In this document: in pieces, positions 23,404 to 32,727 of the stretch
Layout: each line of letters opens with the position of its first letter
Numbering within the stretch: position 1 is the stretch's first letter
Virus record (IMG/VR): IMGVR_UViG_3300047282_000546
Coordinates: 1-37,720 of that record
Strand: one strand, 5' to 3'
DNA from: a virus
Taxonomy: Duplodnaviria > Caudoviricetes
DNA: 37,720 nucleotides
Program-made: the position numbers and the translations under genes
Notes under the pieces: generated by a model
What the model was told of the DNA's origin: nothing
The model's input: the letters and a program-made list of their open reading frames with translations, nothing else
The model's database searches: none

Positions 23404-23432
23404 AGAATAGGCTAGCCAACGCTAGGCGTCAA
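23404..23432 (-). promoter_or_regulatory. Sigma70-type early promoter with paired CTAG boxes in the spacer
   Basis: TTGACG-cctagcgttggctagcc(17)-TATTCT. Confidence 0.8.
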
Positions 23433-23452
23433 GGTCTGGCTAGCGATTGGGT

Positions 23453-23525
23453 GCCGGGATTCCGATGGTGCCGCATGCACCTGCCCTGATTCCCCTTGCG
23501 GGTGTTGTATTCGGGCCATCCCGGC
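23453..23525 (+). ncRNA. Candidate structured RNA (long imperfect hairpin)
   Basis: GCCGGGAT/ATCCCGGC, CCGA/TCGG and GCACCTGC/GCGGGTGT stems; G-U pairs favour the + strand. Confidence 0.45.
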
Positions 23526-23996
23526 GGTTCAAGAGTGCCACGGGATGGGTCCGCAGTGGACTAGCTGAAGCTACTTAGCGAAGCTTTGCGCTATGGCTGC
23601 TTAGCCCTAGCAAGCAATCTGCAGCAGATCCAGCTGTTGCATCGGAGCTGGCAAAGGCTGAGCGCCCCACTGCTGAGCCATGGCAACAGCTACGCCTTGA
23701 TAGGTGCGGCTGCGTTCTTTCCAGCGATCAGGCCCTGGCGGCATGCGATGCACTCGCTGCTCACGACCTTGAACGCAGTGGGTCGGGGTCAACTTGGGCA
23801 GATTCTTCAGCCAAAGGCAAGTGGCTTTGACTTCACCGTGGCCGTATTGCCACGGCTGGATGATCTGATCGGGCGGCCGGATCGCAGAGCTGATCACGCT
23901 GACCGGGTTCTCAATGCACCACCGCTCAATAGGTGCCGCCATGAGTAGGCGCACGAAGGCAAGCGCTTCTGCTTGTTCACGTTGCTTGCGATGGAA

Positions 23997-24048
23997 GGCC
24001 CGGCAGCGTTGAGGCCGGCACCGCGTGAGGACCGGCTACCGGGCACCC
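23997..24048 (-). ncRNA. Covarying structured element, copy A
   Basis: 37/52 gapless identity to 32609-32660 with four compensatory base-pair changes. Confidence 0.7.
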
Positions 24049-24156
24049 CATTGCACAGCCCGATGCCGAGGCAGAGCGGGAACCAGCCCATTGTAGGGAA
24101 GGTGACTACTTGCCCCAGCGGGCAATGCAAGCTTCAGCAAACGCAGCCATGCTTCC
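23997..24156 (-). other. 160-nt insertion in the methyltransferase, containing stops and a structured element
   Basis: Junctions ...CGG CAC|GGAAGC and CCGGGCC|TTC CAT; length not a multiple of 3. Confidence 0.8.
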
Positions 24157-24368
24157 GTGCCGCGATCCACTGACCGCTAGATGAGTGCAGGGCGGATGAG
24201 CCACCATCAGATCCCAGCCAAGGTCAAGGATGTGCTCAACGTGGGCCATCCAATGCGGCCCTGGCACTTCAGTGGGCAGCAGGTCGCAGCTCCATGCGTC
24301 ATGGCCGTGAGCGCGAAAGGCATCACGGACCCGGCCGCTGTACTCACAGGCGACTAAGACCCGCATGG

Positions 24369-29380: not shown

Positions 29381-30043
29381 ATGAATCAAGACCGCTACGA
29401 GCACCCGCCCCTAGCCAGTCGTCAACGCTTTGGCCGCACGCTCACGGCGTGGTGCAACCGCAACGGCTGGATCCACAGCACCCTGCATGAGTGGGGTGAG
29501 CAAGCGCGCTTTCCAGCGGTACGGGACAGCACGTTTAACAAGCTGCAGAACGCCAAGACAGATCAACCTCTACCGCTCACGTTCATTCAGCTGGCCATTG
29601 CCAACGCCCGGGTCGCCGATGGCGACTACAGCGGCGTCACCGACCGCCGCCTGAAGGATCGGCTGGTGGATTCGCAGGCGATCTGCGACGAGCACGGCAC
29701 CCCCTGGCGAGCCACGGAGTTCTTCTCTCACTTCATCGGTGAGCTAGATGCGCCGGATTGGCTGCAGCAGCCCAAGCCCCTATCCGCTGAAGAAGCGCAG
29801 ACCTTGAGCCGTCAGCACCAAGAGAAGTTCGCCGCCATCGCCGAAGCCAAGGGGCTCAGTCCCGCTGTGGCGTGGAAGCAGCTGGAGCAGCAATGCCAAA
29901 GCATGAACAGCACGCAGCGCGACCTGCTGCGCAACGTGCTGAGCGGCTGGCATGAGTGGATGCCGGCGGAGTGGGAGTCGATCTGCCTGAACGGCTCCGA
30001 CCCGGTTGCCAACGCGCTAGCGACGTGGGAGAAAAGCGCTTGA
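29381..30043 (+). CDS. Putative repressor-like HTH protein
   Basis: FGRTLTAWCNRNGWIHSTL...STFNKLQNAKTDQP resembles an XRE fold; follows int. Confidence 0.55.
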   Translation: MNQDRYEHPPLASRQRFGRTLTAWCNRNGWIHSTLHEWGEQARFPAVRDSTFNKLQNAKTDQPLPLTFIQLAIANARVADGDYSGVTDRRLKDRLVDSQAICDEHGTPWRATEFFSHFIGELDAPDWLQQPKPLSAEEAQTLSRQHQEKFAAIAEAKGLSPAVAWKQLEQQCQSMNSTQRDLLRNVLSGWHEWMPAEWESICLNGSDPVANALATWEKSA

Positions 30044-30068
30044 CCGCTAGCGAAGGCTAGCCTAGGAT
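30040..30068 (+). promoter_or_regulatory. Sigma70-type early promoter with paired GCTAGC boxes in the spacer
   Basis: TTGACC-gctagcgaaggctagcc(17)-TAGGAT. Confidence 0.82.
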
Positions 30069-32608: not shown

Positions 32609-32660
32609 GGGTGGCAGGTAGCCAGGGCTCACGCACCACTGGCCTCACCGCAGCCTGCCG
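32609..32660 (+). ncRNA. Covarying structured element, copy B
   Basis: Intergenic between dcd and the sigma gene; shares its fold with 23997-24048. Confidence 0.7.
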
Positions 32661-32727
32661 CTACGGACGCTTCGAGCCTTGTTAGAGGTCGAGCCAAAAG
32701 TTTAGCAACTTCTCCCTATTGCCGCTG

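Follow-up and report, generated by a model that had tools for sequence, protein, structure and literature searches.

What is the 160-nt segment that splits a DNA methyltransferase gene in a phage genome, where did it come from, and why was it kept? The window, by which we mean the whole 37,720-nt stretch of DNA that was analysed (IMG/VR record IMGVR_UViG_3300047282_000546), is a complete circular phage of 37.6 kb with a 127-nt terminal repeat, whose gene content includes a serine recombinase, Sak, terminase, tape measure protein and sigma factor. Because the best phage matches of the sigma factor are those of Synechococcus phages S-CBS3 and S-CBS1 (37-38%), the host of this phage is probably a picocyanobacterium.

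A methyltransferase gene interrupted by foreign DNA

The first 70 codons of the methyltransferase gene, with the PC motif inside, occupy positions 24157-24366 (-), and their translation (24366-24157) ends in HPPCTHLAVSGSRH; the last 129 codons and the stop lie at 23607-23996 (-), with a translation (23996-23607) that starts FHRKQ and first in-frame starts at GTG 23954 and ATG 23942. Taking out the intervening 160 nt (23997-24156 (-), or equally 23998-24157, the ends being ambiguous by one shared C) rejoins the frame, 70 + 129 = 199 aa, and an intact 199-aa allele, L157, matches the rejoined frame. Only 1 nt is common to insert and target at one junction, and 0 at the other. L157 matches phrog_757, annotated as DNA methyltransferase, with an E of 6e-70 and, like the phage enzymes of that family, keeps the PC and ENP motifs; unlike those enzymes, the window allele is interrupted, and cytosine-5 specificity is assigned to it from motifs only. 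Among the best 80 viral homologues, 78 are intact, one is cut by a contig end, one, from a related phage, carries a nonsense codon (L085:2501-2650), and none has a frame-breaking insert at the window's junction. One homologue, L142, has 19 extra residues at the loop where the window insert falls. Exact patterns for further alleles found only L157 and G001, a sister phage described below.

The junctions were checked in contigs assembled from sequencing runs, which are evidence of presence only. Two contigs of run X1, with depths of 159 and 122, each extend over one junction, and one 1171-nt contig of run X3, from another study, covers both with 0 differences, which rules out an assembly chimera; in run X4, 2 contigs skip exactly the 160 nt, and the 160 nt are separately present in other flanks. 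The split by a 160-nt insert, described in an earlier note on this DNA, is thus confirmed by the X1 and X3 contigs, the intact allele and the 199-aa rejoined frame, and an insert-free form exists in the X4 contigs. With a frameshift and a stop between the PC and ENP motifs, methyltransferase activity has presumably been lost, and the gene is likely to be merely a dispensable landing place in an early operon. Elsewhere in the window, two inverted copies of a palindrome, at 23408-23433 and 30039-30064, lie between a TTGAC and a -10 box, and are likely the operator-promoters of divergent early operons.

The insert is 100% identical over its 160 nt to a sequence from another phage, L021, and 96% identical to G004; judged by this match, it is foreign DNA, an exact copy of another phage's sequence. 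In L021 the 160 nt run from the end of a small gene through a -10-like box and a 27-nt hairpin into the start of a longer element, and the donor sequence extends beyond both insert ends. The same layout can be read in the window. Positions 24106-24156 (-) hold the last 16 codons and stop of the donor small gene, identified from the L021 translation; this tail reads GSMAAFAEACIARWGK-stop, and its stop at 24108-24106 truncates the methyltransferase. The predicted -10 box of the donor small-RNA promoter, TACAAT, is at 24090-24095 (-), placed by the position count of TAnnnT given below, with no canonical -35 upstream of it in the insert. At the predicted +1 stands the 27-nt hairpin, a putative antitoxin decoy (24057-24083 (-)), and 23998-24049 (-) is the first part of a structured element without an Rfam family, its outer and inner stems, cut before the third pairing strand. 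Folding of the whole insert gave a modest z of -1.97, and an Rfam search with the insert returned no family.

The tail, TACAAT box, hairpin, 52-nt element and AAG codons all lie where the earlier note placed them. Its statement that the insert ends exactly at the structured element stands as far as the junction at the stem base is concerned, but only the element's first part is inside and a further strand is missing. The reading that it ranked first, inactivation of the gene by a recent insertion, holds, the 160 nt being the end of a gene and an intergenic region in L021; this occurrence is also the ordinary context that it had named as telling against more exotic readings. That note had also asked whether the segment recurs in other genes with the same ends: it matches L021 and G004, but the same ends were seen in none of 225 contexts.

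A second insert in a sister phage

G001, reached via loose contig ends in run X7, is a complete 38.6-kb phage that is 97.5-99.9% identical to the window over about 24 kb. Its methyltransferase gene is identical to the window's at 599 of 600 nt and is interrupted at codon 8 by 239 additional nt, which lie on the other strand relative to the window insert. The corresponding site, at 24343-24345 (+), is intact in the window; this 3-nt word is found at both ends of the G001 insert. Contigs 26 and 27 of X7 carry the same second-insert site, and X7 and G001 may be one sample. No donor was found for this insert, which consists of a gene end, a -10-like box, the identical 27-nt hairpin, other modules and half of the structured element.

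Both inserts begin 52-74 nt upstream of the predicted +1 and end inside the same structured element. They have different sites, strands, lengths and ends, which rules out a single intron, hop or two-chain design as the cause of both; the downstream modules differ too, and the only complete part common to both is the -10 box with the 27-nt hairpin. The earlier note, made from the window alone, could not see that the event repeats, and while it had singled out the 52-nt element, the shared cargo is the small hairpin. No other copy of the hairpin within 6 edits was found in the window or G001 genomes, and it is present in 2 of 24 records with an intact methyltransferase homologue (1 of the 6 complete ones, most of the 24 being fragments). 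By simple arithmetic, a 240-nt piece taken at random from a 40-kb donor would include promoter and hairpin about once in 200 times.

Screens of 176 and 225 contexts for a third split gene, 210 of the latter with library matches on both sides, returned only the window and G001. Four other rows of the larger screen were rejected: L057 is an antisense frame across two genes, and L206, L236 and L273 align to frames in other array loci.

The hairpin heads small-RNA arrays in phages

Exact scans found the 27-nt hairpin at no fewer than 119 viral loci and on 24 bacterial contigs, and a variant is present in S-CBS2. Among the matches listed, TAnnnT occurs at -12 to -7 in 52 of 106 distinct upstream sequences and in 0-4 at other offsets; given this fixed position, the start of the hairpin is the predicted transcript start, and the captured hairpin is probably transcribed from the promoter inserted with it. 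The stems pair in all of 20 pattern-selected rows, with 2 of 7 pairs changing on both sides, and the apical loop varies while the internal loop is kept. A terminator-like hairpin follows directly in 6 of 89 toxin-free contexts among the matches listed (control 0), so the 27 nt can be a whole RNA.

Elsewhere the hairpin heads arrays. Among the matches listed, 24 of 104 contexts of the hairpin contain the structured element and 16 a tRNA T-loop; scans of 12 array loci returned tRNA matches and one abiF-like RNA at 33.8 bits, below the cut-off of 37. Promoter-led arrays of shuffled small structured RNAs were observed in S-CBS2 (56651-56760) and at L250 (G003:9100-9400), L180, L186, L225 and L234, which are likely from cyanophages. 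In the window itself, a match to sRNA-Xcc1 directly behind the methyltransferase gene (23445-23525 (-), 56.4 bits, above the Rfam cut-off) may be one more small-RNA module of this kind.

The structured element

Covariation shows the structured element to be real: across 40 hand-picked rows, both partners vary at 12 of 18 pairs, compared with 0 of 500 shuffles. It occurs after many different genes (74 loci). In 86 of 87 scored copies another pairing strand follows, the sole exception being the copy in the window's insert, so the stem-base end of the insert is a cut through the element rather than the element's own end. The window has a full-length copy of its own at 32609-32700 (+), between the dCTP deaminase and sigma factor genes and without the 27-nt hairpin. 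An Rfam search with the element found no family and a plasmid search no informative match. There was a resemblance to the D12-methyl RNA (RF02950), which shares short words with the opposite strand of hairpin and element at 12.6 bits and an E of 9.3, far under the cut-off of 57.

Two further features of the element were seen. The full element, about 106 nt, is present in one and absent from the other of two loci, L057 and L405 (G164), between the same two tail-region genes. The G-U wobbles of alignment A1 speak for the forward strand at the inner stem and for the reverse strand at the third helix, and structure may therefore exist on both strands; in the third helix (columns 55-68), 19 cells are paired and 20 unpaired.

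A MazF-like toxin gene precedes the hairpin in bacteria

On bacterial contigs, the 27-nt hairpin is the first of three in an RNA that lies directly downstream of an orphan PemK/YifN gene. Starting from the hairpin, a gene for this MazF-fold protein ends 6-104 nt upstream in 15 of 23 distinct bacterial contexts and is convergent with the hairpin in one more; viral contexts among the matches listed are toxin-linked in 4 of 93 cases and toxin-free in 89. The protein has 110-150 aa, scores above the cut-off for PF02452, matches solved MazF chains weakly (E 0.004) and has invariant E, R and T positions, which we take to be the MazF active site. Its subfamily numbers 3,683 proteins at E <= 1e-20.

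Starting from the protein, 17 of 69 distinct toxin loci are followed by the hairpin within 5 edits (controls 0/69 and 0/65), and 57 of 69 by the wider three-hairpin core (controls 1 and 4), the latter by a pattern drawn by eye from the same rows. By that pattern, hairpins 2 and 3 are retained most widely next to the toxin. Loci L312-L391 show this conserved RNA just behind the PemK/YifN stop, with a terminator-like end. Rfam holds no family for it. Toxin-linked copies carry the whole core in 18 of 19 cases; of the 89 toxin-free viral contexts among the matches listed, 82 carry hairpin 1 only and none the full core. Since hairpin 1 is mostly the only one present in phages, and toxin loci retain hairpins 2 and 3 best, hairpin 1 may not be the toxin-binding part.

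No MazE/PemI family member was found among 63 ORFs upstream of the toxin. Some toxins do have a gene upstream that might encode a protein antitoxin, namely three ribbon-helix-helix and about six small HTH genes, and in a Sphingomonas replicon the toxin gene and RNA stand alone between dnaN and recF. A PemK/YifN gene with such an RNA adjacent to it is the layout that would be expected of a toxin with an RNA antitoxin.

Present in 3 of 151 sampled Pseudomonadota genomes, the toxin is patchy. No cyanobacterial toxin was found among 13 and 18 plasmid matches, 11 phage matches and the named clusters, and no antiphage role is on record for it, PADLOC giving no match. In prophages the gene often follows a CI-like repressor, terminase or integrase gene, and in Vibrio records PQ189288-PQ189317 (13-15 kb) eleven small phage-like elements have it near the record end. 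In phages that carry the hairpin, the antitoxin-like RNA occurs without the toxin, as a phage mimic of an RNA antitoxin would: a search with a positive control found PemK/YifN in 0 of 50 larger viral records that bear the hairpin. These were chosen from the records lacking a linked toxin, and 10 of them are at least 90% complete. The window, G001 and G004 also have none. The literature searched, mostly open-access with subscription papers largely outside it, contained no description of the toxin-RNA pair or the arrays.

Why was the fragment captured and kept?

We are confident that the insert is a recent capture of a foreign phage fragment that breaks the methyltransferase gene. DNA of a co-infecting phage would have been joined into the gene by illegitimate recombination, bringing with it a predicted promoter and a 27-nt RNA hairpin. 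The hairpin RNA could then act as an orphan antitoxin that binds a PemK/MazF-like toxin of the host, and such a decoy would block a suicide defence, so that the insert would be kept by selection. Because both inserts carry a predicted promoter and the hairpin that sits behind a MazF-like toxin gene in bacteria, the phages likely captured an RNA decoy. We regard two independent captures of the same hairpin into the same gene, like the hijacking of toxI by phiTE, as the best reading. For the whole statement, with the capture kept because the hairpin is an antitoxin decoy, we put the chances at about even; it would require that the hairpin binds the toxin, that the host has a cognate toxin and that the cargo is under selection. 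More tentatively still, the YifN/PemK subfamily may be a so far undescribed RNA-antitoxin abortive-infection system that cyanophages and other phages counter with promoter-led arrays of orphan antitoxin and tRNA decoys, the window showing one of two recent natural thefts of a decoy from a co-infecting phage, paid for with the methyltransferase. On that view, the other modules of the arrays, among them the 52-nt element, would each indicate another defence under RNA control.

Could the fragments have been kept for another reason? Loss of the methyltransferase may itself have been selected, or the inserts may be nearly neutral, with the small-RNA promoter region a hot donor, its DNA being rich in hairpins, strongly transcribed and prone to breaks. 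Methylation-sensing defences exist, and losing the gene could evade one. Both events in one 600-nt gene, the nonsense codon in the relative L085 and the ending of both inserts inside the same element would all fit, yet point mutations should inactivate a gene far more often than foreign inserts do, 78 of the best 80 homologues are intact, and both inserts start just far enough upstream to include the whole promoter. We consider this explanation unlikely, though the strongest of the alternatives.

Selection might also have acted on a cargo with a different task, as a 5' leader that stabilises or processes small RNAs downstream of it, a C4-like immunity or regulatory RNA, or a sponge for a different host protein. 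The hairpin always stands at the predicted +1 and heads many different modules, and the toxin-linked RNA has other hairpins that are more widely kept. Set against this are the differing downstream modules of the two inserts, with the element cut in both, the hairpins that stand alone before a terminator-like hairpin, and the internal loop kept while the apical loop varies, and we find a different task rather improbable.

That the gene still yields enzyme, by splicing, a T4 gene 60-like hop or two chains, is very improbable. The bypass codons that the earlier note pointed to are present: AAG-TAG lies at 24111-24106, and the fourth codon of the second half is an AAG. A second chain might begin at GTG 23954, M.AquI is reportedly a precedent for a two-chain methyltransferase, and the loop tolerates extra residues in homologues, as in L142. 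However, AAG-TAG is the ordinary end of the donor gene in L021, the gap is absent from all 80 homologues, and neither a hop nor two chains explains a sister allele broken at codon 8, on the other strand and by an insert of another length. A second chain would also lack 14 residues, at a split that is not conserved. Introns fare no better, as had been argued from the junction letters: a group I intron needs U before the 5' splice site, a terminal G and a catalytic core, a group II intron a GUGYG start, an AY end and domain V, and the junctions and Rfam search showed neither. HDV-like, hammerhead and pistol ribozyme folds, compared by eye with their consensus, did not fit.

A small mobile or removable element with defined ends, mobilised in trans, is more improbable still. 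In its favour, one insert end falls exactly at a stem base, and L057 and G164 differ in whether the full element lies between their shared pair of tail genes. Against it, the break in the sister allele has a different site, strand and length, the two inserts have no end, length or target motif in common, the donor sequence extends past either insert end, RVT_1 and Y1 transposase are absent from the 5 records searched, and the fixed recurring ends of an insertion sequence or miniature element were seen in 0 of 225 contexts. An origin of the stem-base junction through RNase P or cDNA was dropped, as the G001 insert ends in a loop and the 5 records have no RVT_1.

If the capture of an antitoxin decoy is right, it would provide a large toxin subfamily, at present annotated as type II, with an RNA antitoxin, give a function to the small-RNA arrays of abundant freshwater and estuarine phages, and mean that counter-defence RNAs move between phages in nature by gene-breaking capture, a step earlier seen only as laboratory escape. 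If it is wrong, a broken accessory gene and a conserved toxin-linked RNA remain.

Comparison with known systems

Type III toxin-antitoxin systems comprise ToxIN, CptIN and TenpIN. The PemK/YifN locus shares with them a MazF-fold endoribonuclease and an adjacent conserved structured RNA with no evident protein antitoxin, the last point with some doubt from the HTH and ribbon-helix-helix genes. Unlike the type III arrangement of tandem repeats upstream of the toxin, the RNA lies downstream, with its own predicted promoter and terminator and no repeats in the rows viewed, and the protein is annotated as type II. The locus would resemble type III in its working, but by its layout it is not filed in any of the three families.

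AbiF and AbiFr (RF03085) are likewise a toxin with a short hairpin RNA antitoxin, and one array here contains an abiF-like RNA, but AbiF is a HEPN toxin with a different RNA, and the 27-nt hairpin does not match RF03085. The available text of PMC12737573 presents AbiFr as a shown RNA antitoxin of AbiF, and that of PMC9964418 reports an orphan abiF RNA in cyanophage S-CREM1.

A precedent is phiTE. As the available text of PMC3475682 has it, the phage phiTE-F took up toxI by recombination and so escaped ToxIN; with its pseudo-ToxI repeats, phiTE offers the same outline of a phage that acquires a non-coding sequence resembling the RNA which pairs with a MazF-fold toxin, but not the toxin itself. 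In phiTE this RNA is a pseudoknot of tandem repeats, its function was shown, and the donor was a defence plasmid at a homologous locus. In the window the RNA is a single hairpin and a putative decoy, the donor was another phage, and the joining was nearly blunt and into a coding gene, an event that is seen twice and in natural samples.
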